From an uncultured Eubacteriales bacterium (GTDB taxonomy: Bacteria; Bacillota; Clostridia; Oscillospirales; Oscillospiraceae), in assembly GCA_949744165.1 (NCBI GenBank), contig CATJWG010000174.1:1-38742 (forward strand): a DNA stretch of 38,742 nt, in the 5' to 3' direction. Both the position numbers and the translations under genes were made by a program. The notes under the pieces are model-generated. The model was not told where the DNA came from. It saw nothing but the letters and a program-made list of their open reading frames with translations, and made no database searches. Positions 19,496 through 34,925 of the stretch are shown in pieces (position 1 is the first letter of the stretch; each line of letters starts with the position of its first letter).

Positions 19496-19549
19496 CGGCA
19501 GAGTAGTCGCGTTCCACGGATAAAAGTCAAAAACTGAGGGGGAAATTTT

Positions 19550-19798
19550 ATGCTCGGAATAATCGTCACCATACTAATAGGCGCCCTGTCCGGCTATCTG
19601 GCGGGGCTGATAATGAAGATAAAGGGCGGCTTCTGGTTCAACTGTGTGCTGGGCATAGTCGGCTCATTTATCGGATTCTTTCTGGCCAGTATCATCGGCA
19701 TCACCGCCTCGCGCGTGAGCATTGGCGGAATTTTGCTGTCCGTTGCGGGCGCATGCCTGCTGATTTGGCTGGTAAGAAAAATAGGAAGCAAAGTGTAA
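19550..19798 (+). CDS. GlsB/YeaQ/YmgE-family small membrane protein (transglycosylase-associated)
   Basis: 82 aa with three Gly-rich TM helices (GIIVTILIGALSGYLAG...GIVGSFIGFFL...). GGGGGA lies upstream. Confidence 0.75.
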   Translation: MLGIIVTILIGALSGYLAGLIMKIKGGFWFNCVLGIVGSFIGFFLASIIGITASRVSIGGILLSVAGACLLIWLVRKIGSKV

Positions 19799-19809
19799 AA
19801 AGCATGAAG

Positions 19810-19834
19810 AAGGCCGCCCATTTGGGGCGGCCTT
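19810..19834. terminator. hairpin between convergent genes (candidate bidirectional terminator)
   Basis: AAGGCCGCCC (19810-19819), loop ATTTG, GGGCGGCCTT (19825-19834); a perfect 10-bp stem. The flanking T-tracts are weak. Confidence 0.5.
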
Positions 19835-19846
19835 GGCTTTACCTTA

Positions 19847-22240
19847 TCAGAGCATGTTTTCCGTTCTCTTTATTATCTCATTCTGTACCGCGGGGGTAAG
19901 AAGGGTGAAATAGGTGCTGTAGCCTGCCACACGGACAATGAGGTCCTGATAGTCCCTGGGGGTCTCCTGAGCATTTTTGAGCACCTTGTTGTCCACGACG
20001 TTGAACTGGATATGCTTGCCGCCGTTGTACATATAGGTCCTTACCAATTCGACAAGCTTTTCAAGGTCGCTGTCGCTTTTCAGGGTACTGGGGTGTATCT
20101 TCATGTTCAGCAGTGCGGCGTTAAATGGGGTCTGGTTAATCTTCATCGCGCTGGTCAGTGAAGCGAGCGGCCCCTCGTGGTCGGTCCCCTGGGCTGGGGA
20201 CATCACGCCGTCGCACAGAGTCTCACCGCAGCAGCGGCCATCCGTGGTTGCGCAGGTATAGGAGCCGCCGGGAGCGTGGGCGGTAATGGACACGCCCGTG
20301 GGTCTGGGGGCCTCGCCGTACACCGTGCGGAAGCTCGCGGTTGTCTTTTCCCAGAACTCGTACAGCTCCACGGCTATGTCGTCGGCAAAGCTGTCGTTAT
20401 TGCCGAACTTGGGCGCCCTGAGACACTCGAGGCGCAAATCCTCATACCCCTCCCAGTCGGACTCTACAGCCTCGAACATGGTGCCCATACTTACCTTTTT
20501 GTCCTCAAACACGAGCTTTTTTATCGCGGCCATGGAGTTAGCCACGTTTATCATGCCGATAGGATTGAACATTGAGGCGTTTTCATAGAACATTTTCCTG
20601 TCGAACATGTCGCGTCCGCTGGTGATGCCGTCCTTGGTGAAGGCGGAGTGGACCACGTCGCAGAACACCTCGCGCGTTACGCGTATGAGGATGTTATGTT
20701 CCTCGTTGTACAGTCCCATGAAATATTTAAGCTGGGTCTTGAAAGCGTCCATGAAGCTGTCAAAGCTCGTGAAGTCCTTCATCTCGCCGGTGCGGGGTCC
20801 GAGCTGCTCGCCGGTCTGGGTGAGCACGCCGTTGTGCATTGTGATATCCAGTACCTTCGGCACGATGAACATGCCCAGAGCATTTATTCTCGACTTACCG
20901 GGCAGGTTCAGGTCCAGGCAGCCGGCCAAAGCGTAGTCACGAGCGTCCTCAAGGGGTATGCCCTGCTCCACAAGGCCGCCGATGTAGCTCTTGTCGGAGA
21001 CAAAGGCCGGCATACCAAGGCCAGTACGCACGAGCTCCGCGGCCTTCATAAGCAGGTCCTTCGGAGTGGTATCCGCCACGCGCACGGTAATGGTGTACTG
21101 CGGCACACGCACCTCGTAGGCAGCCTGGATTACAAGGTATGACAGCTCGTTTGTCGCGTCGCTGCCGTCGGGCTTCACGCCGCAGATAACGAAATTGTGC
21201 CAACGTGCCATGCCGGCCCACTTGTCGCGCTGCTGCGCGCCGCCGTTTACGAAGTTGAACTGCATTATCTTTATGCGCAGGCATTCCAGAAGCTCGAGCA
21301 CCTCGGCGTCGGTTATCGCGCCGGTCTCGATGTCGTGCTTGTAGTAGGGATACATATACTGGTCGAAGCGGCCGCCGGGGGTAGTGCCGTGGGCAACCAT
21401 CATCCAGTAGAAATAGAAATTCTGCATCGCATCGCGGAAGTCGCGCGACGGGTTCTCGGCTATCCAGTGGCAGGTGTCCGCCATTCGCAGGAGCTCTTTT
21501 TTGCGTGTTTCGTCCGTGGTCCCGGCCGCCTTGGCCGAGCAGGCGTCTCCGTACCGGTGATACATGCGCACCATGGCGCTCAGTGCGATTATCACGGCCT
21601 TGAGATACTGGGCCTTGTCGAAGGAATCAGGGTCATGGTAGGTTAGCTTTTGCAGCTCGTCCTCGGCCTGGTGCAGGGTGTGGCTTATTCCCTCCCGGAT
21701 TATCTTGCCGTAGTCCGGCACGAAAAAGGATAGTCCGATGCCGATGCCCCATCCAAAGCCCGCGCCTCCCGCGCCGCGTCCCTTTTCCTTGTCCTTCCAC
21801 GGCGGGCAGAGTATGCCAGAGCGAATGAAGGGCCACAGGTGCCAGTCGTCATAAAAGCGGCCCTGCCACTCGTAAATCTGCCGCCCCTGGCCGGCCCAGA
21901 AGGAGTCGTAGGAGCGCAGCTCACGCCGGTCGTCGTCGGAAATAACAAACTTTCCTCCGTCGAGCATGGTGTCAAGGTCCGCGTCATCCCAGAACGGCCC
22001 CCAGACAGAGGCCTCCATTCCGTGGGGCTGGGACGCCACATTGCCGGCTATAAGCTCGTCGTCGTCAATATATAAAGTGCGCTTGTCGAGGTAATTTGCC
22101 GTGGCGTATGCGTTCTTGAGAATCTGTGGCAGACCCTCATGCTCGCGCCAGGACTCGATAAAATACCTGGCCTTTTCCGCGCAGATGGGGTACTTGTCTG
22201 TCTTCAGGCTCTGCTGCATCCTGGCTATTCTATCCGTCAT
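19847..22240 (-). CDS. glycyl radical enzyme, PFL2/eliminase-like class, substrate unknown (GRE1)
   Basis: 797 aa. The C-terminal glycyl loop is LIVRVAGYSTYF (Gly773) and the catalytic Cys441 lies in LAGCLDLNLPGKSR, 332 residues upstream. It has the N-terminal YPICAEKARYF block and GGRFDQYMYPYY. GGAGG lies 8 nt upstream of the ATG. Confidence 0.9.
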   Translation of the reverse strand: MTDRIARMQQSLKTDKYPICAEKARYFIESWREHEGLPQILKNAYATANYLDKRTLYIDDDELIAGNVASQPHGMEASVWGPFWDDADLDTMLDGGKFVISDDDRRELRSYDSFWAGQGRQIYEWQGRFYDDWHLWPFIRSGILCPPWKDKEKGRGAGGAGFGWGIGIGLSFFVPDYGKIIREGISHTLHQAEDELQKLTYHDPDSFDKAQYLKAVIIALSAMVRMYHRYGDACSAKAAGTTDETRKKELLRMADTCHWIAENPSRDFRDAMQNFYFYWMMVAHGTTPGGRFDQYMYPYYKHDIETGAITDAEVLELLECLRIKIMQFNFVNGGAQQRDKWAGMARWHNFVICGVKPDGSDATNELSYLVIQAAYEVRVPQYTITVRVADTTPKDLLMKAAELVRTGLGMPAFVSDKSYIGGLVEQGIPLEDARDYALAGCLDLNLPGKSRINALGMFIVPKVLDITMHNGVLTQTGEQLGPRTGEMKDFTSFDSFMDAFKTQLKYFMGLYNEEHNILIRVTREVFCDVVHSAFTKDGITSGRDMFDRKMFYENASMFNPIGMINVANSMAAIKKLVFEDKKVSMGTMFEAVESDWEGYEDLRLECLRAPKFGNNDSFADDIAVELYEFWEKTTASFRTVYGEAPRPTGVSITAHAPGGSYTCATTDGRCCGETLCDGVMSPAQGTDHEGPLASLTSAMKINQTPFNAALLNMKIHPSTLKSDSDLEKLVELVRTYMYNGGKHIQFNVVDNKVLKNAQETPRDYQDLIVRVAGYSTYFTLLTPAVQNEIIKRTENML

Positions 22241-22315
22241 GAGAAAATCCTCCGTCTGTGTTATTTTATATATAACATATCATCAAAGCGTCACCGGCGC
22301 AACGAAGAAAAAATC

Positions 22316-22349
22316 GCATTTTCAACAACAATATGCTTGTTGAAAATGC
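22316..22349. promoter_or_regulatory. perfect 13-bp inverted repeat, candidate operator in the GRE1/LysR divergent promoter region
   Basis: GCATTTTCAACAA (22316-22328), 8-nt spacer CAATATGC, TTGTTGAAAATGC (22337-22349). It lies in an AT-rich 211-nt gap between the divergent starts at 22240 and 22452. Confidence 0.5.
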
Positions 22350-22451
22350 ACCTATTGAACAATAAAGATTGAAAAAATAAACAAAATGTGGTAAAATAAA
22401 TATATTTAGGCTTCCACTATTTTTAATACGGAGACCGGAGGGGCGAGACGC

Positions 22452-23459
22452 TTGAATAATATCAGTCTGCAATATTTCATTACAGCGGCGGAGGAACAGA
22501 ACATCACTCAGGCCGCGGCTAAGCTGTTCATCTCCCAGCAGGCGCTGAGCGGGCACATAAAGAAGCTGGAAAAGGCGTACAACGCCGTGTTTTTCGAGCG
22601 CAGCCCCAAACTTAAGCTGACCTATCAGGGCGAGAGGATGCTTGCTTATGCCAGACGGGTGGTTGAGGCCGAGCACGACCTTGTGGAAAAGCTGCGCGAC
22701 GACAGCGAAAACCGCCGCATACGCATGACAATAGGTCAGACCTCTACACGCGGGACCGTGTTCATGCCCACGATAATCGGAAATTATTACAAAATGTTCC
22801 CGAACGTGGTGCTGTCAATAATCTCGGGTAACCACGATTACATTGAGAACCAGCTCCAGCTCGGCAAAATCGAGCTGTACATGGGAATGTCGGCCAACAC
22901 CAATCTGCGCAGCAGCGGAAAAACGCTCTACCGCGACCGGCTGTATTTCATTATCTCCCGCGAGCTGCTCTCCCAAGTGCTCGGCGCAGGAGCGGACGGC
23001 TTTGTCGATGCACATCTCCACGGCTGCGACCTCACCGACGCCTGCCGCTTCCCGATGGCCCTGCCGCCAACCACCAGCACACTGCGCACTACCTTCGAAA
23101 CCATGTTCAACGAGCGCAGCCTCTCGCCCAACATAGTCCTGGAGACGACGGAACACGACATTCTCTTCGACGTGTGCAAAAACGGACTTTGCGGCTGCTT
23201 CGTCTCACGCGAGCTGCTTTACAGAAAGATAATGCACAAGAGCCGGCCGTCAAACGTACTGTATTTCCCCGCTGAGGGAATAACGGAGCTGGCGCACTTC
23301 AACATAGTCTACGGCAACAGGGAACCCTCCCTGCATGTGCGTTCGTTTATCGATTGCTGCCGCGAGACCATATGGCGCTCCATTGAGGAAATAGACAAGT
23401 ACCTGGTGTCGGAGAGCACAGTAAACAGTCACGTATATCCTAAAATGTCCGCGTTCTGA
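22452..23459 (+). CDS. LysR-family transcriptional regulator
   Basis: It has an N-terminal HTH (LQYFITAAEEQNITQAAAKLFISQQALSGHIKKLEKAYNAVFFER) plus a substrate-binding-domain-sized C-terminus. It is divergent from GRE1. TTG start. Confidence 0.9.
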   Translation: MNNISLQYFITAAEEQNITQAAAKLFISQQALSGHIKKLEKAYNAVFFERSPKLKLTYQGERMLAYARRVVEAEHDLVEKLRDDSENRRIRMTIGQTSTRGTVFMPTIIGNYYKMFPNVVLSIISGNHDYIENQLQLGKIELYMGMSANTNLRSSGKTLYRDRLYFIISRELLSQVLGAGADGFVDAHLHGCDLTDACRFPMALPPTTSTLRTTFETMFNERSLSPNIVLETTEHDILFDVCKNGLCGCFVSRELLYRKIMHKSRPSNVLYFPAEGITELAHFNIVYGNREPSLHVRSFIDCCRETIWRSIEEIDKYLVSESTVNSHVYPKMSAF

Positions 23460-23475
23460 GATACAGGGAATTTTG

Positions 23476-23507
23476 AAAAAGTCCTGATGTATATCGGGAC
23501 TTTTTTT
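23476..23507 (+). terminator. intrinsic terminator after the LysR gene
   Basis: AAAAAGTCC (23476-23484), 12-nt loop, GGACTTTTT, with a run of 7 T (23501-23507). Confidence 0.6.
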
Positions 23508-23688
23508 ATGCCCACAACAAAATTATTGTCGAAAATCACACCCAAAACTGTTGGAGTCAGCATTAAATCCGTGGTAAACTCCTAAACATAAAGCACAAAA
23601 ACCGCAGCGGCATAATTGGGGTTTTTGTTCATTTTATTTTAGTCAGGCAGACAACAGCCGGACTAAGCGCAAAAAACAGAAAAGGAGA

Positions 23689-24186
23689 ATGCAGGCATTG
23701 GAAAAGCTGAAAAAAGACCGCCTGTTGGGAATCATTGTCCTTGTCATTGCGGCCTTTTTTGCCTACTTCACTGGCAAATTGGGCTCGACAAACTTTGAGG
23801 GCGACCCTGGGCCAAAGATGTTCCCCTACATGGGCTCGATTATCATGGCGTTGTGCGGCATAATTCTCTTGGTAAAACCCGAGAAAAAGGAAAAGGGGAA
23901 ATTCCTCAGCCGCGATGAGCTTAAGCACGCCGCGCTCCTGTTCGGCATCTACGTGCTGTTCGTTGTAATGATGAAGTATCTCGGCTTTGTAGTAACCGCA
24001 CCGATTGTGCTGTTTGTCGTGTCATTCCTGTTTTCGAAAATTTCTGACCCCGGCGCGACGGCAAGGGCTCGTGTAATCCGCAGCCTTATCTACTCCGTGG
24101 CCGTAACCGCCGCGCTGTATCTGGTATACGTCGTGGCGCTGGACGCGAAGCTTCCCAGCGGCGCGCTGCTCAAGCTGTTCAGATAA
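23689..24186 (+). CDS. tctB: tripartite tricarboxylate transporter small membrane subunit TctB
   Basis: 165 aa with four predicted TM helices, immediately upstream of tctA. The start may instead be TTG at 23698, which has better spacing from AAAGGAG. Confidence 0.7.
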   Translation: MQALEKLKKDRLLGIIVLVIAAFFAYFTGKLGSTNFEGDPGPKMFPYMGSIIMALCGIILLVKPEKKEKGKFLSRDELKHAALLFGIYVLFVVMMKYLGFVVTAPIVLFVVSFLFSKISDPGATARARVIRSLIYSVAVTAALYLVYVVALDAKLPSGALLKLFR

Positions 24187-24200
24187 GGGAGGAAAAGAAA

Positions 24201-25682
24201 ATGCTCAATTACCTGCTCCAGTCTCTGGGCACCCTGTGCTCGTTTACAGGCATAATGTACATACTCATCGGCTCCATCGCCGGATTACTCTTCGGCTCCC
24301 TGCCGGGACTTTCCGGCGGCACGATAATGGTTTTGCTGCTGCCGATAAGCTACAAGATGGACCCCGTGCTGGCTATGGCGCTTTTCATGTCCATACACAT
24401 CGGCTCAACCTGCGGCGGATGCATCGGCTCAATCCTTCTCGGTATACCCGGCACCAGCGGTTCTATCGCCACGACATGGGACGGCTATGAATTTACCAAG
24501 CAGGGCGACCCAGTACGCGCGCTGTCCGCGGCCGTTGTTTGCAATTTCATTGGCACCATACCTTCCATAGTCATCGCCATGGCGGCCTGCCGCACGCTGG
24601 CAAACCTTGGCGTTAAGCTTGGCCCCTGGGAATACGCGGCTATGTGCTTCTGCGCGGTGTGCATGGTTATAGGTCTGTCCAAGGGAAACATGGTCAAGGG
24701 CTTTGTCGGCGTGGGCCTTGCAGTCCTGATTGCCTCGATAGGTACCGACCCCATAAACGGCAGCGTGCGTCTGACATTTGGTTCGATGGATATGTACAGC
24801 GGAGTCAACGTCATCAACATCATGCTCGGTCTGTACGCGGCAAAGCTAATTCTGCTCGAGTACGCCCGCCGGAGCCGCGGCGCAAAAACGAACATAAAAG
24901 TCCGGCGCTTCAAGTGGCCCGGCAGGGACCTCAAAGACAACAAAGGCAACATGATACGCTCGTTTGTAACCGGAGCGTTTATCGGCTTTCTGCCCGGGCT
25001 GGGCGCGCCGACCTCCACCGTAATCGCCTACGCCAACGAAAAGAGTCTGGCTAAAGACTCAGAGAAGTGGGGCCACGGCGCGATAGGCGGAGTTATCGCG
25101 CCCGAAATCTGCAACAATGCCGGAATCGGCGGAGCAATGATACCAATGCTGGCGCTTGGCATCCCCGGCGACGCGATAATGGTCCAGTTTATGGCCGTTA
25201 TGTCCATTCATGGCATAACCTCCGGACCTATGCTCATGAAAACGAACCCAGACATGGTATACATGCTCTTCACAGCGGCGATGGTCGCGGCAATATTCGT
25301 TCTGCTGGTGCAGACTCTGGGTATGCCGATGTTTCCGAAATTCATTTCCTTCCCCTACCACTATCTATATCCGGCAATAATCGTTGTCAGCTTCCTCGGC
25401 TCATACATGACCGCCGGCAGCATCTTCGGCGTGGTTGTTACCGTGTGCGCCTGCGCGCTGGGGCTTGCGATGGACTATTTTGCCATACCAATAATGCCGT
25501 TTATCATGACCTATATTCTCGCCTCTCTGTTTGAGAAAAACGTACGGCAGGCCATGAACTTCTCGCTCGTGGGTGTACAGGAATTTTTCACCCGTCCCGT
25601 GTCGCTGATATTCATTCTCGCTGGGTTGGCCGTACTGGCAATACATTTTGTAAAGCCTCTTATAAGTAAGGTCAGGGAGTGA
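24201..25682 (+). CDS. tctA: tripartite tricarboxylate transporter permease TctA
   Basis: 493-aa polytopic protein. TctA-type blocks are present (GSLPGLSGGTIMVLLLP, GIPGTSGSIAT, GFLPGLGAPTS, GIPGDAIM). GGGAGG RBS. Confidence 0.88.
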   Translation: MLNYLLQSLGTLCSFTGIMYILIGSIAGLLFGSLPGLSGGTIMVLLLPISYKMDPVLAMALFMSIHIGSTCGGCIGSILLGIPGTSGSIATTWDGYEFTKQGDPVRALSAAVVCNFIGTIPSIVIAMAACRTLANLGVKLGPWEYAAMCFCAVCMVIGLSKGNMVKGFVGVGLAVLIASIGTDPINGSVRLTFGSMDMYSGVNVINIMLGLYAAKLILLEYARRSRGAKTNIKVRRFKWPGRDLKDNKGNMIRSFVTGAFIGFLPGLGAPTSTVIAYANEKSLAKDSEKWGHGAIGGVIAPEICNNAGIGGAMIPMLALGIPGDAIMVQFMAVMSIHGITSGPMLMKTNPDMVYMLFTAAMVAAIFVLLVQTLGMPMFPKFISFPYHYLYPAIIVVSFLGSYMTAGSIFGVVVTVCACALGLAMDYFAIPIMPFIMTYILASLFEKNVRQAMNFSLVGVQEFFTRPVSLIFILAGLAVLAIHFVKPLISKVRE

Positions 25683-25749
25683 GCCGGAACCAATTTAAAG
25701 AGTACCGCGGCAAAAACCGCGTACCAATAAAACAAGGAGGACCAATGAA

Positions 25750-26859
25750 ATGAAAAAGAGTATAGCTATTATTCTCGCGCTTGTGATGCTTCTTGCTCTG
25801 TGCGCCTGCGGTGACACAGGCAACAGCAGCAATACCCCCGCCCCGGCAAGCACCCCTGCTCCCGCGGATAACAACGCCCCCGCAGACAATATCCCTCCGT
25901 CCGACGATAAGCCGGAGATAAGCTGGCCGACTGACACCGTGACGGTTTACGTTCCTGCCGACGTCGGCGCGCCGCTGGACCTGGCCACACGAGTTCTGGT
26001 TGACTGGCTGACTGAAAAAACCGGCGGCACCTTCGTGGTGGAAAACGACGCTGCCGGAGGCGGCGCACGTGTCGCCAACCTCACCACCCAGGGAGAGAAG
26101 GACGGCACCGTACTCATGTCCTGTGGTTGCGGACAGCTTATCTCCTCATACAATGGCACCTGGGACATCAGCCTTGCCAATCCCGAACAGTTCAGTATAA
26201 TCGCACCGAATATTGGTCAGGCTCTGCCCTCTGGCGGCGTGTTCGTCACACAGCCCGACGCACCTTATAACAGTATTCCCGAGCTGGTGGAGTATGTCGA
26301 GGCTAACCCGAATACCGTCACTGTAGCCGTTGTCATGGGCACCCCGCATGAGGTGCGGCTCAAGCTCATAACCGAGCACTACGGCATCTCCGACAAGGTC
26401 CGCTGGGTCTCCTGCACTAACAACGACGCGCTTACCGGCCTGCTCGGCGGCACTATAAATCTCGGCTGCCTTACTGAGACCGTAGGCCCGCAGTATGTTG
26501 CCGACGGCAGCCTCAAGGGTCTGCTCAACAGCCGCACCGAGCGCGGCTACGCCGATGATGAGCTCAAGGAAACTCTCGACTCCATCCCCATAGTACCTGA
26601 TATCATCGGCGGCGACTGTGAAAGCCTTGTCATCGCCTGGCCGATGCTGGTTGTCGGTCCCGGCGGCATGGACGACGAGCTTTGCAAGTACATCAACGAC
26701 TGCATCGCCGACATAATAAACAGTGAGGAGTACATGGAACGCGTGTACGGCCTTGGCGGCACGAACACCTACCAGCCCATGACGGTTGAGGAAATCCGCC
26801 AGGTCGTCGCCGACGCCGACGCTCAGCTCGCGGAAATCTGGGCCAATTTTGAAGGCTGA
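25750..26859 (+). CDS. tctC: TctC/Bug-family solute-binding lipoprotein
   Basis: It has a signal peptide plus lipobox (LLALCACG), a Pro/Ala/Asn-rich tether and a Bug-family block (FVVENDAAGGGARVAN). AAGGAGG RBS. Confidence 0.8.
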   Translation: MKKSIAIILALVMLLALCACGDTGNSSNTPAPASTPAPADNNAPADNIPPSDDKPEISWPTDTVTVYVPADVGAPLDLATRVLVDWLTEKTGGTFVVENDAAGGGARVANLTTQGEKDGTVLMSCGCGQLISSYNGTWDISLANPEQFSIIAPNIGQALPSGGVFVTQPDAPYNSIPELVEYVEANPNTVTVAVVMGTPHEVRLKLITEHYGISDKVRWVSCTNNDALTGLLGGTINLGCLTETVGPQYVADGSLKGLLNSRTERGYADDELKETLDSIPIVPDIIGGDCESLVIAWPMLVVGPGGMDDELCKYINDCIADIINSEEYMERVYGLGGTNTYQPMTVEEIRQVVADADAQLAEIWANFEG

Positions 26860-26870
26860 AAGAAATAGAA

Positions 26871-26898
26871 AAAGGGACCGCTCCGCGGCCCCTTTTTT
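26871..26898 (+). terminator. intrinsic terminator after tctC
   Basis: AAAGGGACCGC, loop TCC, GCGGCCCCTTTTTT. The stem is 8 bp with one mismatch, followed by a 6-T tract. Confidence 0.6.
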
Positions 26899-27139
26899 GA
26901 GAAGGTTTTGCCCCGCCGCGAGACTCTATTGTCCCGTCCCGCAATAAGGATGAGACAGGCAGTCGCACTCCTTACGCAGAGCATCTTCCTTGTTCTAAGT
27001 GGGCAAAAATCGAGTTCGAGATAGGCATAATCACTAAAACACCGTATAAATTTTCTGCAAAAACTACATATTTACATTTCAGCAGCAGAAAGGTTTATTA
27101 TGATGGTATAAAACGGAAAATTAAATTTGGAGGTCAGTT

Positions 27140-29542
27140 ATGGACACCCTGGAGCGAATAGAGAAGATAAAAAGGCGCGTGATAGTTGACCGCTATCCCA
27201 TCTGCATAGAGAAATTCCGCATTACGCTGGACGTGCGCGAGCACAGCCGCAACGACCATATCATGATTCAGCGCGGCAAAATACTGCGTGCCTGCGCTGA
27301 GCGCATGCCCATAGCCATAGGCGAGGAGGAGCTTATTGTAGGCATTGCATCAAGCAAGCACATGGGGCTTGAGATTGACCCAGACTACGGCATTTGGCCG
27401 CAGAATGAGATAGATTCGCTCAAGGCTGACGGCTATCTCATAGACCCCCAGGACGAGAAGGACCTGCAGGAGCTCAACAAGCGCTATCAGCCCGACACGC
27501 TCATAGGCCGCATGGGAGACGTGCTTTATAACGAGCCGCGCATCATGAACATGCTGCGCGCAGGGCTCATTCTGCCGCCGTGGAAGGATAAGCGCAGCGA
27601 GCGCGGGGTCGGCGGCGGCTACGCGCAGTCCGGTCTCGGCCTTGGCCCGTCGCTGGTGCTGCTGTGTGTGGAGTACGACAAACTAATTAAAAACGGCACA
27701 CGCGAGCTTATCCGTCAGGCAAGAGAGGAGCAGGACAAAATTCGCTTCTCCGACATGGAAGCGCTCGACAAGCACCGATATTACGACGCCGTGGTCATGG
27801 CCTTCGAGGCTATGGAGATTTTGGCCGGACGCTATGCCGCGCTGGCAAGGGACATGGCGAAAAAGGAGACTAATCCTGAGCGCCGGGCCGAGCTCGAGCA
27901 GATTGCCGAGACCTGCGCGAGAGTGCCGATGTATCCGGCGCGCTCCTTCCGTGAGGCGGTGCAGTGCTTCTGGTTCCAGGTTCTGTTCCTCAGCCCGAGC
28001 ACCACGCTGCCCGGTGGGCGCTTTGACCAGTACATGTACCCCTACTACAAGCATGACCTCGACGCGGGTCTCATAACGCGGGAGCAGGCTACGGAGCTGC
28101 TGTGCCTGCTGCGTCTTAAGGACATGGAGCTCAACCGCACCTCCGGCAGCGAGCTGCGCAAGAAAAACTCCGGCATGGCCAAGTGGCACAACTACACCAT
28201 CGGCGGCGTAGACCCAGTCACGGGCGAGGATGCGACCAACGACCTGACCTATATGCTCATTGACTCGGCCATGATAACCAAAACGCCGCACTTTACCCTA
28301 ACGCTGCGCGTACATGAGAAAACGCCTCCGGAGCTGATGGAAAAGTCGCTGGAGTGCGTGCGCCTCGGCCTCGGAATGCCGGCCTTCGTCAGCGACGGAT
28401 CCTACACGGCGACCTTCGCCTCGCGCGGCTGTCCGCTGGAGTTCGCGCGCGACTTCGTCATGACTGGCTGTCTGGACGGCAATCTTCCCGGCAAGTCCCG
28501 CACCGGCCCCGTGCCTATGGTGACCTTCCCGCTCATTTTCGATATCTTCCGCCACGGAGGAATTGACGTTAAAACAGGACTGCGCGTCGGTCCGAACTGC
28601 GGCAGCTTCGCGGACTTCAAAAGCTACGATGAGCTCTTCGCAGCGCTGAGCGAGGAGATAAAGTACATTCTCGGCCTCGTGTGCGAGAAGAACAACGTCG
28701 AGCTGGCCATAACGCAGGAAATACTTTTCGACCCTCTGCGCAGCGCGCTGATGTATCAGGGCATTGAGTCCGGCAAGGACACATGGAAGCGCGTGATGCC
28801 CTTTGAAAACTGCGCGGTGGTCAATCCCATAGGCATGGTAAACCTCGGCGACTCTCTCGCTGCGATAAAGAAGCTGGTGTTTGACGAAAAGAAATACACC
28901 CTTGCCGAGCTTCAGGCAGCCCTGGACGCCGACTGGGCCGGCTATGAGGACATGCAAAGCGACTTCCTTCACGCCCCGAAGTACGGCAACGACATTGACT
29001 ACGTGGACAACATCGTCTCTGAGTGCTACAAGCTGCTCAACGACACGGTGGCTGGACTGCCTAACATTCTCGGACGGCCGACGATTGCCACAGGCATATC
29101 GATAACCTCACACCAGCCCGGCGGCCAGCTCACCGGAGCCACTCCAGACGGCCGAAAGGCCGGCACGATTCTCGCCGACGGCACAACCTCACCCATGCAC
29201 GGTATGGACACCTGCGGTCCGACCTGCGTGTTCAAAAGCGCGATGAAAATTGACCAGGACCCCATGCAGGCCACACTGCTGAACATGAAGTTCCACACCA
29301 CCGCGCTGAAAACAAGCGCCGATCTGGCAAAGTTAGGCGCGATGATAAAGGCATATCTGACCCATGGCGGCAAGCAGGTGCAGTTTAACGTCGTTGACCA
29401 GGAGACGCTCAAAAAAGCGCAGGAGAGACCCGAGCAATACCGAGATCTCGTGGTGCGCGTGGCCGGCTACAGCACCTATTTCGTAACGCTGTCCAAGGCA
29501 ATGCAGGATGAGGTGATAGAACGCACCTCCATGGGCCTGTGA
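27140..29542 (+). CDS. glycyl radical enzyme, PFL2/eliminase-like class, substrate unknown (GRE2, paralogue of GRE1)
   Basis: 800 aa. The glycyl loop is LVVRVAGYSTYF (Gly776) and Cys444 lies in MTGCLDGNLPGKSR. It shares long blocks with GRE1 (PPWKDK, GGRFDQYMYPYYKHD, GLGMPAFVSD, AAIKKLVF, QFNVVD). GGAGG RBS. Confidence 0.9.
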   Translation: MDTLERIEKIKRRVIVDRYPICIEKFRITLDVREHSRNDHIMIQRGKILRACAERMPIAIGEEELIVGIASSKHMGLEIDPDYGIWPQNEIDSLKADGYLIDPQDEKDLQELNKRYQPDTLIGRMGDVLYNEPRIMNMLRAGLILPPWKDKRSERGVGGGYAQSGLGLGPSLVLLCVEYDKLIKNGTRELIRQAREEQDKIRFSDMEALDKHRYYDAVVMAFEAMEILAGRYAALARDMAKKETNPERRAELEQIAETCARVPMYPARSFREAVQCFWFQVLFLSPSTTLPGGRFDQYMYPYYKHDLDAGLITREQATELLCLLRLKDMELNRTSGSELRKKNSGMAKWHNYTIGGVDPVTGEDATNDLTYMLIDSAMITKTPHFTLTLRVHEKTPPELMEKSLECVRLGLGMPAFVSDGSYTATFASRGCPLEFARDFVMTGCLDGNLPGKSRTGPVPMVTFPLIFDIFRHGGIDVKTGLRVGPNCGSFADFKSYDELFAALSEEIKYILGLVCEKNNVELAITQEILFDPLRSALMYQGIESGKDTWKRVMPFENCAVVNPIGMVNLGDSLAAIKKLVFDEKKYTLAELQAALDADWAGYEDMQSDFLHAPKYGNDIDYVDNIVSECYKLLNDTVAGLPNILGRPTIATGISITSHQPGGQLTGATPDGRKAGTILADGTTSPMHGMDTCGPTCVFKSAMKIDQDPMQATLLNMKFHTTALKTSADLAKLGAMIKAYLTHGGKQVQFNVVDQETLKKAQERPEQYRDLVVRVAGYSTYFVTLSKAMQDEVIERTSMGL

Positions 29543-29573
29543 GCACACGTCCACAGCAAGGGAGACCGATGAA

Positions 29574-30512
29574 ATGACTGAAAACTACATGGAAGTAACC
29601 GCTCCGATATTCAACATCCAGAGCTATTCCATACATGACGGACCGGGCATAAGGGTGACGGTGTTTATCAAGGGCTGTCCACTGCGCTGCCTGTGGTGCG
29701 CCAATCCCGAGTCAAATCTGGCACGTCCTCAGCTCATGACATATATCGCCAAATGCACCGGCTGCGGCCGCTGCCTTGGCTCCTGTCCTGAGAAAGCCAT
29801 CTCCATAGGTTCAAAAGACGGGAAGGTGGCCGCGCTGACCGACCGAACGCTGTGTACAGAGTGCGGAGCGTGTATCTCCTCCTGTCCTCAGGAGGCGCGC
29901 GAGCTGGCCGGCAAGGAAATGACGGTACGGCAGGTGCTGGAAAAGGTGGAACGCGACAGGCTGTTCATCGAGACGAGCGGCGGCGGAATGACGCTCTCGG
30001 GAGGAGAGTGCCTCATGCATCCGGAATTTTCCGAGGCGATGCTGCACGCCGCGCACGAGGCGGGCTTCCACACAGCCGTGGAGTCCTGCTCCTTCGCCCC
30101 CAACGATGTTGTCGAGCGCGTGTTCTCCCTGGCTGACCTGTGTCTGCTGGACATAAAGCACATGGATTCCATAACGCACAAAAAGCTCACGGGCGTGCCC
30201 AACGAGCTGATACTCGACAATATCCGCTATACCTATCACATTCTGAAAAAACAGGTGATAGTACGCGTCCCGACCATCCCCGGCTATAACGACTCTGAGG
30301 CCAACATCACCGCCACGGCCCGCTTTGTGGCGCAGAAGTTGGGAAACGACGTGCCTGTACACCTGCTGCCCTACCACCGTTTGGGAGAATCGAAGAACGA
30401 GAGCCTTGGCAAGGATATGGACCTGTCGATAGAGGTCCCCTCCGACGAGCACATGCAGTGGCTGCTGGAAATTGTCAAAAATTTTGGGCTGGACGGACAA
30501 ATCGGCGGATAA
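29574..30512 (+). CDS. glycyl radical enzyme activating enzyme (radical SAM)
   Basis: The radical-SAM motif is CPLRCLWCANPE (CxxxCxxC). Two ferredoxin-like clusters (CTGCGRCLGSCP, CTECGACISSCP) and GGMTLSGGE are present. At 312 aa it is typical of PFL2-class activases. Confidence 0.9.
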   Translation: MTENYMEVTAPIFNIQSYSIHDGPGIRVTVFIKGCPLRCLWCANPESNLARPQLMTYIAKCTGCGRCLGSCPEKAISIGSKDGKVAALTDRTLCTECGACISSCPQEARELAGKEMTVRQVLEKVERDRLFIETSGGGMTLSGGECLMHPEFSEAMLHAAHEAGFHTAVESCSFAPNDVVERVFSLADLCLLDIKHMDSITHKKLTGVPNELILDNIRYTYHILKKQVIVRVPTIPGYNDSEANITATARFVAQKLGNDVPVHLLPYHRLGESKNESLGKDMDLSIEVPSDEHMQWLLEIVKNFGLDGQIGG

Positions 30513-30516
30513 TTAC

Positions 30517-30549
30517 AAAAAAACGGAAGCTGCAAGGCTTCCGTTTTTT
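30517..30549 (+). terminator. intrinsic terminator after the activase gene
   Basis: AAAAAAACGGAAGC, loop TGCAAG, GCTTCCGTTTTTT. The GC core is 8 bp, extended by A/T pairs, with a 6-T tract. Confidence 0.7.
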
Positions 30550-30598
30550 GTTCGAATCTGTTATCATAGAAGTCGTTAAAGAATACGAGGGAACGAAT

Positions 30599-31996
30599 AT
30601 GAATAAAAAAACACTTATAACGGATTTTACCTCGGGCTGTGTGCCGAAGCAGCTCGGTATTTTCATGCTGCCGTTTATGGCCTCAAACGCCATGCAGGTG
30701 CTCTACTCGCTGGTGGACATGATTATCGTCGGACGCTTTGTGGGAAAAAGCGGCCTGTCCGCCGTGTCACAGGGCAGTATGCTTATGATATTCGTCACAT
30801 GCATCTGCATGGGCTTTTCCACGGGCGGGCAGATTATAATCTCGCAGTTCATAGGCGCGGGCCGGCAAAAGGAGCTCGGCAAAATAATCGGCACGATGTT
30901 CACGAGCATGATAATTCTCAGCCTTGCTCTGACGGCTCTGGTCCTTGTACTAAGAAATTTCGCTCTGGACCTTATCAGCATACCTGATGAGGCGCGGGAC
31001 ATGGCAATGGATTACATTGTGATATGCGGCGCAGGCACCATCTTCACCGGCGGCTACAACCTCATATCCTCGATTCTGCGCGGTATGGGAGACTCTCGAC
31101 ATCCCTTCATCTTCATCACTATCGCTTCGGCTGTGAACCTGATTTTGGATTTGCTGTTTACGGGCTTTCTGGGATTTGGCGTCGCTGGAGCTGCGACGGC
31201 CACGATTTTAGGACAGGCGGTGTCGGTGGTCGTATCGCTGCGCCTGCTCTACCGTCGCAGGGCGGAGTTTTACTTTGACTTTATGCCAAAAAGCTTCCGG
31301 CCGGACGCACCTCTGTTCGTGGAGATTTTCCGCATGGGCGTGCCGCTGGCGCTCCAGGCTTGCGCTATAAGCATCTCAATGATGTTTGTAAACCGCTTTA
31401 TAAACACCCTTGGTGTCACTCCCTCGGCTACCTTCGGCACTGGAATGAAGCTTGACGACATCTCAAACAAGCTCACTCAGGGTGTACAGTACGCCGCCGC
31501 GCCGATGATTGGCCAGAACATCGCCGCAAAAAAGCACGGACGGGTCAAGTCCGTGTTCGGCTGGAGCCTTGTCCTGTCCAGCGTTGTGTCGGCCTGCTTT
31601 GTGCTCTGCTATGTGCTCATTGGCAGGGAGATGTTCTCGCTTTTCATCAGCGACGCGGATGTGCTCGACCTGTCGCACGTGTTCATAAGCGCAATACTGT
31701 GGACCTTCCCCGGTATGGTGCTTATGCGCTCAACACACGCGCTTCTCCAGGGAACGGGGCGCACGACAATAATCATGGCGCTGGCCTTTGCCGACGCAGG
31801 GTTGAGGCTGGTACTCAGCTACCTGTTCGGCATAAGCTGCGGCATGGGTTTTTACGGTTTTGTGCTCGGCTTCGGTCTCGCTCCCTACGGCGTGGCCCTG
31901 CCGGGGCTGATATATTTCTTCATGGGCCGCTGGAAAACAGCAAGGCTGTCCTCGGACAGTGATTTTGAAATGACTCAGGAGGCGGAAAATGGATAG
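30599..31996 (+). CDS. MATE-family efflux transporter
   Basis: About 465 aa with 12 TM-type hydrophobic segments. N-terminal MATE signatures are present (PFMASNAMQVLYSLVDMIIVGRFVG..LSAVS). ATG 30599 is chosen; the track's 30458 start overlaps the activase gene and its terminator. Confidence 0.85.
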   Translation: MNKKTLITDFTSGCVPKQLGIFMLPFMASNAMQVLYSLVDMIIVGRFVGKSGLSAVSQGSMLMIFVTCICMGFSTGGQIIISQFIGAGRQKELGKIIGTMFTSMIILSLALTALVLVLRNFALDLISIPDEARDMAMDYIVICGAGTIFTGGYNLISSILRGMGDSRHPFIFITIASAVNLILDLLFTGFLGFGVAGAATATILGQAVSVVVSLRLLYRRRAEFYFDFMPKSFRPDAPLFVEIFRMGVPLALQACAISISMMFVNRFINTLGVTPSATFGTGMKLDDISNKLTQGVQYAAAPMIGQNIAAKKHGRVKSVFGWSLVLSSVVSACFVLCYVLIGREMFSLFISDADVLDLSHVFISAILWTFPGMVLMRSTHALLQGTGRTTIIMALAFADAGLRLVLSYLFGISCGMGFYGFVLGFGLAPYGVALPGLIYFFMGRWKTARLSSDSDFEMTQEAENG

Positions 31997-32615
31997 GAAA
32001 AAGCTTATAGGAGAAATCGTGGACCTTGAATGGGATATGTTCCAGCGGGTACACAACAACGGAGGCCGCGCCTCCTGTCAGAACGACAGCGAGACCTTCT
32101 ACGGAATGCGCTGCGGCCAGTTTCTGGCCTGGGAGACGCCGGTGCTGGAAAGCTACGCGCGGGACCTGAAATCAGCTCAGGGGTCCGGACGCAACCTGCT
32201 CGCAGAAAAATACCTGCGCATGATGGAGAGCACCTTCCCTCAGGAGTACGAGCTTCAAAAGGACCGTCTGCCGGAGGTGAGCGAGCGCGCCGCGCGGCTG
32301 GCGGAGGAAATTTGCATTGAGATGATTGTTCAGACGGCGGCTGTGCGCGATAGCTTTCCGCTTGTCGGCGGGGCTGGCCGTCCGCTTTACAGCAGCGAGG
32401 ACCGTCCCGGCGATACCTCAGTTGAGACCTATCAGCGCGGCGAGTTGCTTACCTACTCGGAAACGACGCTTGAGCTGCTGCACGCCCAGGTCTTTGAGAT
32501 GAAGGCGCGCGGAGAGAGCCTTGCCGCGGCTGAGCTGGAAAACTCGGTGTGCCATTACGGATACGAAAGCATACAACAGGCGGAGGACTGTCTCCGCTCC
32601 AGACAGGGAGGTTAA
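31989..32615 (+). CDS. conserved hypothetical protein, DUF4125-like (assignment from memory)
   Basis: 208-aa soluble protein. The block WDMFQRVHNNGGRASCQND..TF..MR resembles what I recall of DUF4125. The start overlaps the MATE stop by 8 nt. Coding is likely; the family name is unverified. Confidence 0.55.
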   Translation: MDRKKLIGEIVDLEWDMFQRVHNNGGRASCQNDSETFYGMRCGQFLAWETPVLESYARDLKSAQGSGRNLLAEKYLRMMESTFPQEYELQKDRLPEVSERAARLAEEICIEMIVQTAAVRDSFPLVGGAGRPLYSSEDRPGDTSVETYQRGELLTYSETTLELLHAQVFEMKARGESLAAAELENSVCHYGYESIQQAEDCLRSRQGG

Positions 32616-32618
32616 AAA

Positions 32619-33308
32619 ATGACAGCACAGGAAATTTTGGAAAAATATGACACGCTGGCAAAAAGCGCGGGAGACGGGGAGGCCGAGCATTTTCTCGCAG
32701 AACAGTGCACCGGCTACGACGAGGCCGCGCCGGAGGATTTGACGGGGCGCGCCGCGCTGTACAACGAGCTCGGCGGCTTTTACTGCGCCGCAGGCAGCTA
32801 CGAAAAGAGCGAGACGTCCTTTAACAAGGCGAAGGAACTGCTTGACGGCAGCGCGGAGCTTCGCTGCAGCGACAGCCGCGCCGCCGTCCTGGAAAACCTC
32901 GGCAGCCTTTACAGGCTTACCGGACAGTACGACAGGGCGCTTGAACAGTTTAACGCTGTTAAGGAGATATACGACGAGGTGGAGGTGCCGCACGAGCTCT
33001 ACGCGGCCTGTATCAGCAACATCGGCCAGGTATATCTTGACGCCGGTCAGGCTGAGGAGGCTGAGGAGTTTTTCAGGGGAGCACTGGCCATAGCTCAGAC
33101 AGAGCCAGCGGATGAGCTGATGATGGGCACAAGTCTGGGCGGCATGGCCTCAGCCCGGCTGCTGCGCGGGGATGCCGCGGGCGCGGCGGAGCTTCTGCGC
33201 CGTGCGGGAGCACATTTCAACGTGCTGGGAGGTCAATATACCGAGGCGGGAGAGTATTTCATAACAACGGCAGACGAGCTTGAGGGCATAGGCAATGAAG
33301 GCGCTTGA
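32619..33308 (+). CDS. tetratricopeptide repeat protein
   Basis: 229 aa. It has repeated TPR-like helices (LYNELGGFYCAAGSYEKSETSFNKAKEL; LENLGSLYRLTGQYDRALEQFNAVKEIY; ISNIGQVYLDAGQAEEAEEFFRGALAI). The GGGAGG RBS lies inside the upstream gene's end. Confidence 0.65.
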   Translation: MTAQEILEKYDTLAKSAGDGEAEHFLAEQCTGYDEAAPEDLTGRAALYNELGGFYCAAGSYEKSETSFNKAKELLDGSAELRCSDSRAAVLENLGSLYRLTGQYDRALEQFNAVKEIYDEVEVPHELYAACISNIGQVYLDAGQAEEAEEFFRGALAIAQTEPADELMMGTSLGGMASARLLRGDAAGAAELLRRAGAHFNVLGGQYTEAGEYFITTADELEGIGNEGA

Positions 33309-34215
33309 ACTCAGCCGGAGATACTATTTTGACTGCTGCGAGCCGGTTTTGCGCAAGGAAGTGCCCGAGCTTCTGCCGCGCCTTGCCGCAGGGCTTGTGG
33401 GCGAGGGCTCGGAATGCTTCGGCTGGGACGACGAGCTCTCGCGTGACCACGACTGGGGACTGCGTGTGTGCCTGTTTTTCCCTGACGCACAGCTCCGCGA
33501 GCACGGAACTGCCCTGCTCGCGGCGATAGATAAGTTTCCACGCGAATACGAGGGCTTTCACCTCTGTCCGCCGGTACAGGGCCTCAAGCGCGGTGGGCTG
33601 TATGGCGTTGGCGAATTTTACGCACAGACCATAGGCCGTCCCTGCGCTCCCGAGACGGCGCGCCAGTGGCTGTCCGTGCCCGAGGTCAGCCTTGCCGCGG
33701 CGGTAAACGGCGAGGTTTTTGCCGACCCCTTGGGTGAGTTTTCCGCTGTGCGTAAAAAGCTGCTGGCAGGCTATCCGCGGGACGCGCGGCTGCGCATGCT
33801 GGCCCTTCACGCCGCCCTGGCGGGGCAAACGGGGCAGTACAACATGCTTCGCGCGAGCCGCCACGGAGAGGCTCTGGCCTCCAAGGCCGCAAAATTCAAA
33901 TTCATTGAGCACGCCGCGGCTATATTTTTCCTGCTGCGCGGGCGCTACCGACCCTTTTACAAGTGGCTCTACCGCGCCCTGCGCGAGCTGCCGGGCGGCG
34001 GGAGTATGCACTCGCTCTTGTTGGAGCTGGCTCAATCGGACGATATTCGGCGCGAGTGTTCCCTGACCGAGAGCGTGAGTGCCGCGCTCATCGCCGAGCT
34101 GCGCGACGGTGGCCTGAGCGACAGCGGCAGCGATTTTCTCATGGACCACGTACCTGAGCTTTTAGGACGCATTGAGGATACAGAGCTGAAAGGCGAGCCG
34201 CTTTCCCTGCTGTGA
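33295..34215 (+). CDS. nucleotidyltransferase-fold-like protein, DUF4037-like (assignment from memory)
   Basis: 306 aa. The N-terminal GEGSECFGWDDELSRDHDWG fits the pol-beta NTase pattern G-S-x11-D-x-D. The start overlaps the TPR gene stop by 14 nt. Confidence 0.55.
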   Translation: MKALELSRRYYFDCCEPVLRKEVPELLPRLAAGLVGEGSECFGWDDELSRDHDWGLRVCLFFPDAQLREHGTALLAAIDKFPREYEGFHLCPPVQGLKRGGLYGVGEFYAQTIGRPCAPETARQWLSVPEVSLAAAVNGEVFADPLGEFSAVRKKLLAGYPRDARLRMLALHAALAGQTGQYNMLRASRHGEALASKAAKFKFIEHAAAIFFLLRGRYRPFYKWLYRALRELPGGGSMHSLLLELAQSDDIRRECSLTESVSAALIAELRDGGLSDSGSDFLMDHVPELLGRIEDTELKGEPLSLL

Positions 34216-34226
34216 GAGGTGGGACG

Positions 34227-34925
34227 TTGAACAGGATTTTACTTGTTGAGGACGACGCCGCGCTCGGCCGCGGCGTCTCGCTGGCATTGCAGGACGCGCA
34301 GACCGCGCTCACTCATTGCCGCACACTTTCTCAGGCGCGGCAAACGCTCGAGCGGGAGAGCTTTGACCTGCTCATATTGGACATAAACCTGCCCGACGGC
34401 AGCGGCACGGAGCTTTTACGCGAGTTCAGGCTTAAAAGCTCCGTGCCGGTAATACTGCTCACAGCCAACGACCTGGAAACGGACATCGTCTACGGCCTTG
34501 AGTCCGGCGCGGACGACTATATCACCAAGCCATTTTCTCTCGCTGTTCTGCGCTCACGTGTGAAGGTTCAGCTCCGGCGCGAGCGCGCGTCTCACTCGCC
34601 CGCCGTGGAGCAGGACGGATTTTATTTCGACTTCGACAGCATGGATTTCCGTAAAAATGGGCAAAGCGTGGAGCTGAGCAAGACAGAGCAGAAGCTCCTG
34701 CGCGTGCTGGTGTCCAGCCGCGGTGTGACGCTCTCGCGCGCTGAGCTTGTTGACCGCGTGTGGACCGACGGAGCGCAGTACGTGGATGAAAACGCGCTGT
34801 CGGTGACGGTCAAACGCCTGCGCGGTAAGCTCGAGGACGAGCCCGGCGCGCCGAAATATCTCAAAACGGTGTACGGCATCGGCTATGTCTGGTGCGCGCC
34901 GGAGCGTGGCGGTGAGGGGCTATGA
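34227..34925 (+). CDS. OmpR/PhoB-family response regulator
   Basis: Receiver domain blocks (ILLVEDD, LLILDINLPDGSG, PVILLTA, GADDYITKPF) plus a winged-helix domain (LSKTEQKLLRVL, VKRLRGKL, TVYGIGY) are present. TTG 34227 has GAGGTGG upstream. The track's GTG at 34212 is 5 codons longer. Confidence 0.9.
   Translation: MNRILLVEDDAALGRGVSLALQDAQTALTHCRTLSQARQTLERESFDLLILDINLPDGSGTELLREFRLKSSVPVILLTANDLETDIVYGLESGADDYITKPFSLAVLRSRVKVQLRRERASHSPAVEQDGFYFDFDSMDFRKNGQSVELSKTEQKLLRVLVSSRGVTLSRAELVDRVWTDGAQYVDENALSVTVKRLRGKLEDEPGAPKYLKTVYGIGYVWCAPERGGEGL

Follow-up and report, generated by a model that had tools for sequence, protein, structure and literature searches.

The subject of this analysis is a pair of glycyl radical enzymes (GREs) encoded in a stretch of 38,742 nucleotides (hereafter, the window), which covers positions 1 to 38,742 of contig CATJWG010000174.1 (GenBank assembly GCA_949744165.1) from an uncultured Eubacteriales bacterium of the Oscillospiraceae. 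The first, GRE1, is a PFL2-type protein of 797 aa on the reverse strand (19847..22240), and the second, GRE2, is a paralogue of 800 aa on the forward strand (27140..29542). Both were recognised from their translated open reading frames (ORFs) and from matches to PF02901 and PF01228, share 41% identity over their full length, and belong to what is called here the CXD clade, after the Asp found two residues downstream of the catalytic Cys (Cys+2). The tip of the Cys loop reads G440-C441-L442-D443 in GRE1 (20923..20912, reverse strand, codons GGC TGC CTG GAC) and G443-C444-L445-D446 in GRE2 (28466..28477, forward strand, located by codon arithmetic and by alignment with C441 and D443 of GRE1). 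In translation, the wider contexts are LAGC441-L-D443 within YALAGCLDLNLPGKSR and MTGC444-L-D446 within FVMTGCLDGNLPGKSR. Both proteins end in LIVRVAGYSTYF, in which the glycyl residue is G773 in GRE1 and G776 in GRE2. The glycyl radical motif R770-V-A-G773-Y-S775 of GRE1 (19916..19933, reverse strand) aligns with the RVAGYS of glycerol dehydratase (GD) and CutC, and R773-V-A-G776-Y-S778 of GRE2 (29456..29473, forward strand) was located by translation and alignment with GRE1. Rereading of the ORFs confirmed the loop coordinates and residues given in an original prediction made for this DNA, together with its Cys-to-Gly distance of 332 residues in both enzymes (C441/G773 and C444/G776), which equals that of CutC.

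In HMMER alignments with the sequences of solved structures, GC-L-D sits on the GC-V-E of 1r8w, 9rco, PflD (8yjo), 5i2a, HpzG (8iof), and CutC (9f3w) and on the GC-T-E of HpsG (6lon), with C441 and C444 in register with C433 of GD, C489 of CutC, C438 of propanediol dehydratase (PD), and C462 of HpsG. In a multiple alignment with P0389, a true CutC representative (1601 bits on the CutC model), C489, E491, F395, Y506, and G821 are matched by C441, D443, W347, M457, and G773 of GRE1. The catalytic Cys is thus correctly placed, as had been proposed, and not elsewhere in the protein, and the Asp occupies the position of the Glu in the Cys-x-Glu (CXE) motif. A radical SAM GRE-activating enzyme with a ferredoxin-like insert (29574..30512, forward strand; Pfam Radical_SAM, Fer4_12, and Fer4 dicluster) directly follows GRE2 and is the only activase in the window; since there is no other, it would also be the one that activates GRE1. 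With an RVxG[FWY] motif in the Gly_radical domain, an in-register Cys, and a radical SAM activase nearby, both proteins show the features of the GRE superfamily and, judged from their sequences, are catalytically complete GREs, each with its own Gly motif and Cys loop.

It was reported that CXE is kept by all characterised C-O, C-N, and C-S eliminases and by the three isomerases, and that its Glu hydrogen-bonds the substrate and, in most proposals, is the base that generates a ketyl radical (PMC7077986, PMC13450708). GRE1 and GRE2 both read CLD instead. Among the decarboxylases, the corresponding residue is Glu505 in HPAD and Glu502 in IAD, and a superfamily review of 2026 points out that whole GRE clades still lack experimental validation (PMC13450708). 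In alignments of PDB sequences, the loop reads GCVL in AAD (7E7L), GCIEP in HplG, and ACMSP in the X-succinate synthase MasD, and the essential Gln484 of PAD is, from residue numbering, probably the Cys+2 residue. The Cys loop of pyruvate formate-lyase (PFL) carries Cys-Cys. Because AAD, MasD, PFL, and probably PAD differ, the Glu rule breaks down outside the eliminases and isomerases; the original prediction, which had applied it to eliminases and decarboxylases alike, was right about the former but not about the latter, in which AAD has Leu and PAD probably Gln. Its view that Pro is the norm at Cys+3 does not agree with HpsG (GCTET), PflD (GCVEL), and HpzG (GCVET). On the other hand, its expectation that no well-characterised GRE has Asp at Cys+2 held for all those that could be checked: none was found in PDB searches with full-length and Cys-loop fragments, in NCBIfam, or in the literature, with MasD standing for the X-succinate synthases. 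No description of an Asp-containing Cys loop was found in the literature either, and the string "CXD" is missing from the superfamily review (PMC13450708).

Uncharacterised GREs show a wider range of residues. A phmmer search covered 1.84 billion representatives at 50% identity, and among the best 150 matches, 147 of which could be aligned, Cys+2 was Glu in 72, Asp in 22, Ser in 10, His in 9, Gly in 6, Gln in 6, and other residues in the rest; this list is ordered by similarity to GRE1, so that Asp is over-represented in it. Nearly all of these representatives above about 560 bits carry Asp, and the position is highly variable lower in the list. On these alignments, Cys+2 is variable among uncharacterised GREs and CXD is one of several non-CXE variants; the CXD signature by itself is not evidence of new chemistry. 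A second uncharacterised non-CXE group, with Tyr at Cys+2 in a Cys loop reading GC-V-Y-[LMI]-[DE]-[IV]-PGKN, was observed in a Chloroflexia metagenome-assembled genome (MAG) with four tandem GRE paralogues (L081, 9116-19914) and in another MAG with two (L066, 7429-12277). Non-clade GREs with the loop GCQE, GCVY, or GCVW are also co-located with some clade GREs (L017, 20013-22394; L031, 12439-14883; L039, 3678-6152; and L026, 6313-8763).

The distribution of the Asp is sharply bounded. Of the 120 homologues closest to GRE1, which extend to 56% identity, all 120 have GC[LVIM]D, as do 119 of the 120 closest to GRE2, which extend to 53% identity; the remaining one has no alignable loop. The conservation of GCxD is therefore far beyond chance. 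In a scan of one genome per GTDB species, which gave 79 loci, GCxD was found in none of the sequences with 35% identity or less to GRE1 or GRE2, most of which read GCVE; it was found in all 47 sequences with at least 38% identity to either enzyme (loci L001-L045), a set that also includes clade loci retrieved by contig search. Neighbour-joining of 222 full-length GREs gave a tree in which the smallest clade that holds both GRE1 and GRE2 has 60 members, of which 56 (93%) carry Asp, and a bootstrap value of 92/100, and Asp occurs in only 2 of the 162 sequences outside it. The true CutC representative (P0389) and the HpsG representatives P0347 and P0304 fall outside this clade, which has no characterised member, and the proposal of a distinct active-site subclass, with Asp at Cys+2 as its mark and not as a one-off, is supported.

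Clade members were found in Oscillospiraceae, Lachnospiraceae, Anaerovoracaceae, Acidobacteriota, Syntrophus- and Desulfatiglans-like Deltaproteobacteria, Spirochaetes, and a Sterolibacterium MAG, and among the hosts available in culture are Geosporobacter ferrireducens IRF9, Cuneatibacter sp. NSJ-177, Clostridium sp. chh4-2, and Youngiibacter fragilis. Of the named relatives, an Intestinimonas MAG and an unclassified Oscillospiraceae MAG are the nearest, and the sequence of the window is present in mouse gut metagenomes. By tree and motif, the CXD enzymes are a single, deep, and taxonomically broad clade of PFL2-type GREs without a characterised member.

Comparison with protein family models places the clade at a distance from the GREs whose reactions are established. 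None of the NCBIfam equivalog cut-offs for CutC, HypD, HpsG, HpfG, IAD, HPAD, and PFL is reached by GRE1, GRE2, or the clade member P0241. The best NCBIfam match of GRE1 is the subfamily model TIGR01774 (518 bits versus a cut-off of 678), its best equivalog score is 509 bits versus a cut-off of 1000, and the identity of GRE1 and GRE2 to every characterised GRE is approximately 31-35%. These values bear on the simplest alternative, according to which Asp is a neutral replacement of Glu in an ordinary diol, glycerol, or hydroxyproline dehydratase or in a lyase for choline or sulfonates. Asp and Glu do resemble each other chemically, and the best match among solved structures is indeed glycerol dehydratase (434 bits). 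However, such low identities and scores far below the equivalog cut-offs are difficult to reconcile with it, the substrate-binding and partner residues of GD, HpsG/IslA, and CutC are replaced, the motif is fixed in a deep clade with signature residues of its own, and microcompartment, choline, and sulfite-reduction genes are missing from the gene contexts; this alternative is considered highly improbable.

Residues kept in at least 85% of the clade and in no more than 25% of other GREs are E76, R322, R338, W347, H381, T383, T385, D443, R451, R548, W596, G658, D725, and K742. R338 is present in 100% of the clade and is Glu in most other GREs, the site of R548 is Gly in 79% of the non-clade GREs, and Arg or Lys occupies position 346, the only departures being P0251 (Thr), P0253 (Ala), and L038 (Ala). 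The complete set of clade markers, i.e., GC-x-D with R338, R/K346, W347, R548, T383, and T385, is present in both GRE1 and GRE2. W347 stands where CutC has F395 and GD has Y339, an aromatic position of the active site, and R/K346 would, from residue numbering alone, correspond to Asp339 of HypD. It was reported that the CXE Glu of dehydratases has a His partner (His164 in GD, His160 in HypD), to which Asp447 is added in GD (PMC13450708); in the alignment, His164 is replaced by F172 in GRE1 and by Leu in GRE2, and Asp447 by A454. The sulfonate-binding triad R183/Q187/R672 of HpsG (residue roles from PMC13450708) aligns with I168/F172/T648 of GRE1. Pocket positions on the barrel strands (168-174, 284-286, 341, 444-445, 453-457, and 648) vary among subclades, and GRE1 and GRE2 differ at positions 172, 284-285, 341, 444, and 453-454. 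An invariant, more basic core with variable walls fits a predicted anionic handle shared by the substrates, the remainder of which would vary.

Four members nested within the clade lack the Asp, namely P0241 (GCIE), P0243 (GCIP), P0257 (GCLG), and P0269 (GALS), and all of them retain R338, K346, W347, and R548. In P0269 the catalytic Cys is replaced by Ala, and this Cys-less protein may be inactive or have a different chemistry. Since P0241 has Glu and yet keeps the rest of the signature, it is apparently the carboxylate at Cys+2 that counts, which indicates that this carboxylate is a selected feature. The same exceptions can be read in the opposite sense, i.e., that the role of the Asp is chiefly structural or electrostatic (e.g., in a salt bridge to a clade Arg) and that the chemistry is base-free, such as an X-succinate-synthase-like radical addition with an unsaturated dicarboxylate as the acceptor, or an isomerisation, allylic or of the C-skeleton, of a dicarboxylate that is unsaturated or branched. 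Where Cys+2 is Pro, Gly, or Ser in nested members, the remaining signature is still present, D443 co-occurs with the gains of R338 and R548 (mostly Glu and Gly, respectively, in other GREs), the X-succinate synthases likewise have no acid at Cys+2, and near clade GREs there are genes for PrpD-like proteins and for family III CoA-transferases with relatives among the mesaconate and succinate enzymes. However, the predominance of Asp (93%), with Glu as the one conservative alternative among the nested members, would be more usual for a catalytic carboxylate, genes for small beta/gamma subunits are missing beside the GREs, and the hosts are mostly fermentative gut Clostridia, so that a structural Asp appears unlikely.

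The genes around clade GREs were clustered over 43 non-redundant clade loci. After an orthologous activase, which is found in 18 of the 43, the most frequent neighbours are a CitMHS/MatC-type transporter (14/43) and a PGA_cap protein (12/43), the latter usually adjoining a GRE or the transporter. These are followed by a PucR-type HTH_30 regulator, an HGD-D protein pair, and a URO-D-like protein (7/43 each), TctABC (6-7 of 43), a family III CoA-transferase and an MmgE/PrpD protein (6/43 each), and TRAP DctP (3/43); GntR-FCD regulators, esterases, aldehyde:ferredoxin oxidoreductase (AOR), and Zn-dependent alcohol dehydrogenase (Zn-ADH) also occur in some loci. Each transporter type found is one that serves carboxylates or sulfonates. 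The nearest relatives of the CoA-transferases are the formyl-CoA, succinate-glutarate, and succinyl-CoA:mesaconate transferases, and in L020 and L034 two clade GREs have AOR together with Zn-ADH beside them, as would be anticipated if the product is an aldehyde or a ketone. PGA_cap, which ranks behind only the activase and the transporter in its specificity for clade GREs, is CapA-like (e.g., L023, 4872-6008), and its only characterised relative by sequence is MslH (PDB 8GQ9), a metal-dependent epimerase of the C-terminal Trp of a lasso peptide, which acts at the C-alpha beside the C-terminal carboxylate. Genes for microcompartments, sulfite reductase, choline utilisation, or proline reductase do not recur in the 43 clade loci, and no proline-reduction genes are present in the window.

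Of the 39 GRE-bearing loci, 6 contain two clade GREs. Such pairs were noted in the window and in L001, L013, L016, L020, and L034, the two genes often being adjacent and accompanied by a single activase. GRE1-like and GRE2-like genes also lie on the same contig in at least six further metagenomic contigs, and they are adjacent in a Blautia MAG. Such paralogue pairs could be stereoisomer-specific enzymes, enzymes of sequential steps, or even the parts of a heteromer.

In the window itself, a LysR-family regulator (22452..23459, forward strand; Pfam HTH_1 and LysR_substrate) is divergent from GRE1, and LysR genes also stand beside clade GREs in L030 and L038. It is followed on the forward strand by the tripartite tricarboxylate-type transporter genes TctB (23689-24186) and TctA (24201-25682), both assigned by the Pfam models of those names, and, between TctA and GRE2, by a TctC-like binding protein of 369 aa (25750-26859; Pfam TctC, weak at 36.5 bits). 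A Tct transporter adjoins clade GREs in L003, L011, L016, L021, L033, and L040; the TctC-like gene of the window clusters with those of other clade loci and may encode a divergent, specificity-determining binding protein. Downstream of the activase lies a MATE efflux transporter (30458..31996, forward strand; Pfam MatE), whose membership in the system is uncertain; its cluster (c13) is found near clade GREs in L022, L027, L028, and L040. With GTG taken as its start codon, the MATE ORF has 55 nt (30458-30512) in common with the 3' end of the activase gene, and its true start may lie downstream. Then come, again on the forward strand and by Pfam, a DUF4125 protein (31989-32615), a TPR protein (32619-33308), and a DUF4037 protein (33295-34215), which may be accessory or maturation factors. 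TPR and DUF4125 proteins also flank the GRE pair of the Blautia MAG (L001, 4139-5657), and a clade GRE in a deltaproteobacterial MAG (L015, 6282-8130) has a TPR and a DUF4037-like protein encoded upstream. Upstream in the window are the housekeeping genes IleRS, LspA, RluD, SepF, and DivIVA, which mark the host as a Firmicute. In mouse-gut sequencing runs labelled as RNA, one of them explicitly metatranscriptomic, short low-depth contigs were seen over GRE1, LysR, Tct, GRE2, the activase, MATE, and DUF4125 (19500-34500). They are compatible with transcription of the locus in vivo, a weak and not quantifiable signal in which DNA carry-over is possible.

The carboxylate transporters, PGA_cap, the dicarboxylate-type CoA-transferases, the HGD-like pairs, and the PrpD-like neighbours suggest that the substrate is a carboxylate and not, as the original prediction had considered, a compound with a cationic group, which is disfavoured by this gene context and by the clade-specific gain of Arg and Lys. 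With regard to its identity, no single pathway emerged from the context; sugar diacids, itaconate/mesaconate, tricarballylate/aconitate, hydroxy-glutamate/-aspartate, and aryl acids were each insufficiently supported.

A carboxylate substrate would also agree with a view of the CXD enzymes as radical decarboxylases acting on (aryl)carboxylates, in which the Asp is a proton donor to the Cys or the product and not a base toward a hydroxyl. Of the known classes, it is the decarboxylases whose Cys+2 residue varies (Glu in HPAD and IAD, Leu in AAD, and probably Gln484 in PAD), the pocket of GRE1 is largely hydrophobic and aromatic, and URO-D-like and Amidohydro_2 decarboxylase-type proteins are neighbours in some loci. 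In addition, the GRE pair of the Blautia MAG (L001) lies beside HGD-D, a family III CoA-transferase, an acyl-CoA dehydrogenase, and an electron transfer flavoprotein, an arrangement that resembles the aryl-lactate genes of the reductive Stickland type. However, the decarboxylase models score far below their cut-offs (IAD, 478 bits versus 1100; HPAD, 388 versus 1150), no gene for an HPAD-type small subunit is present, AOR with ADH (L020, L034) and an epimerase-like neighbour are unexpected for a terminal decarboxylation, and the CoA-transferases are like dicarboxylate and not aryl-lactate enzymes. Radical decarboxylation is accordingly regarded as rather unlikely, if less so than a mainly structural Asp.

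The reading to which we give roughly even chances is that Asp443/446 is the equivalent of the CXE Glu in enzymes that act on a carboxylate substrate by elimination or isomerisation, with the two paralogues using related substrates. By the canonical route, the Gly radical would generate a thiyl radical at Cys441/444, which would then abstract a hydrogen atom from the substrate. Asp443/446 would take the role of the CXE Glu, in acid/base catalysis or in hydrogen bonding, toward an OH or NH group of the substrate, and its shorter side chain may suit a substrate that is anchored differently, with one or more carboxylate groups held by the Arg and Lys of the clade. The substrate would most likely be a di- or tricarboxylate that bears a hydroxy or amino substituent and has a stereocentre adjoining a carboxylate, and the product of its elimination or, as the other most likely reaction, isomerisation would then be activated by a dicarboxylate-type CoA-transferase. 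As the variable pocket positions differ, GRE1 and GRE2 probably take different but related substrates, such as stereoisomers or successive intermediates, and would share one activase.

Several points weigh against this assignment. The active-site placement of R338, R451, and R548 is deduced from sequence position alone, and the canonical pocket positions of GRE1 are largely hydrophobic (F172, I168, W347, M457, and V650), which would suit an aryl or alkyl carboxylate as well. Pro, Gly, or Ser at Cys+2 in three nested members implies that the Asp is dispensable for the fold, and the neighbour-joining tree was built from simple distances and not by maximum likelihood. The gene contexts are mixed; esterases, URO-D-like proteins, P450 fragments, or peptide ABC transporters appear in some loci, and because of this heterogeneity the clade probably spans several substrates.

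A bolder and more tentative proposal is that the CXD clade constitutes a new functional class of GREs in gut and sediment anaerobes, with a reaction on di- or tricarboxylic acids that is new to the superfamily, for instance, a dehydration, deamination, isomerisation, or C-C rearrangement by radical chemistry, with a hydroxy-, amino-, or unsaturated dicarboxylate as the substrate. The co-located paralogues, sharing one activase, would then serve stereoisomers or consecutive steps together with a metal-dependent PGA_cap/MslH-like epimerase. This is possible, with the odds clearly against it at present; if the chemistry is new, it would provide an extra anaerobic route for carboxylic-acid metabolism in the gut. 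At present, GRE function is predicted largely from CXE and a few pocket residues. GC-x-D with R338, R/K346, W347, and R548 is a simple and sharply bounded signature of a coherent and widespread clade, whose hosts include Clostridia of the mouse and ruminant gut, Acidobacteriota, Syntrophus-like Deltaproteobacteria, and Spirochaetes, isolates among them, and its use would stop these proteins from being annotated as pyruvate formate-lyase or glycerol dehydratase. The clade also offers a defined target for enzymology, with the carboxylate substrate, the Asp as acid/base, and the paired paralogues as testable hypotheses.

Compared with known systems, PFL and TdcE differ in the Cys loop: instead of their Cys-Cys pair, the GCLD loop has a single Cys, and the PFL model gives 119 bits versus a cut-off of 994. 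The X-succinate synthases have genes for small beta/gamma (and delta) subunits and an acid-free loop, such as the ACMSP of MasD; no small ORFs of the beta/gamma type flank either GRE, among the ORFs of the window or in the clade loci, and the loop of both enzymes has an acid. The decarboxylases HPAD, IAD, PAD, and AAD act on carboxylates, as is predicted for the clade, and likewise have a Cys+2 that is not strictly Glu, but none of them has Asp, and HPAD needs a small Fe-S subunit, for which there is no gene beside GRE1 or GRE2. The traits of this class are decarboxylation of an arylacetate together with Glu505/Glu637 and the small subunit in HPAD or Glu502/Arg226 in IAD; it has no single defining motif, and sequence alone would allow such an activity in GRE1 and GRE2.

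The C-S lyases IslA, IseG, and HpsG take anionic substrates that are held by Arg, as is predicted for the CXD enzymes, and that are imported by transporters of the TRAP or tripartite tricarboxylate type, but they keep CXE, and GRE1 lacks their Arg-Gln-Arg triad (I168/F172/T648). CutC has the same Cys-to-Gly spacing of 332 residues and an aromatic residue, F395, where GRE1 has W347; it differs in E491, Y506, and D216, which are D443, M457, and G165 in GRE1, and in the score of its model (471 bits versus 1050). The best solved relatives are the glycerol dehydratase of C. butyricum (1R8W, 434 bits) and propanediol dehydratase (5I2A, 394 bits), which have in common with GRE1 and GRE2 the fold, the RVAGYS Gly loop, the register of the Cys loop, the RFDQYMYPYY motif, and an acid at Cys+2. 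In contrast to the CXD enzymes, that acid is Glu (Glu435 and Glu440), identity is approximately 33%, GD is without the Arg/Lys set of the clade, and its His164/Asp447 partners give way to F172 (Leu in GRE2) and A454.

The proline-derived dehydratases differ from the clade in the same respect, since HpyG, HpzG, and HypD/HplG keep CXE (Glu437, Glu436, and Glu429), and the HypD model gives 473 bits versus 1100. It was reported, however, that HpyG and HpzG are dehydratases of the L- and D-forms of N-methyl-cis-4-hydroxyproline, i.e., paralogous GREs for stereoisomers that are used with an epimerase (PMC13450708). Their substrate carries a carboxylate next to a stereocentre, and they provide a precedent for GRE1 and GRE2 as a possible stereoisomer-specific pair.

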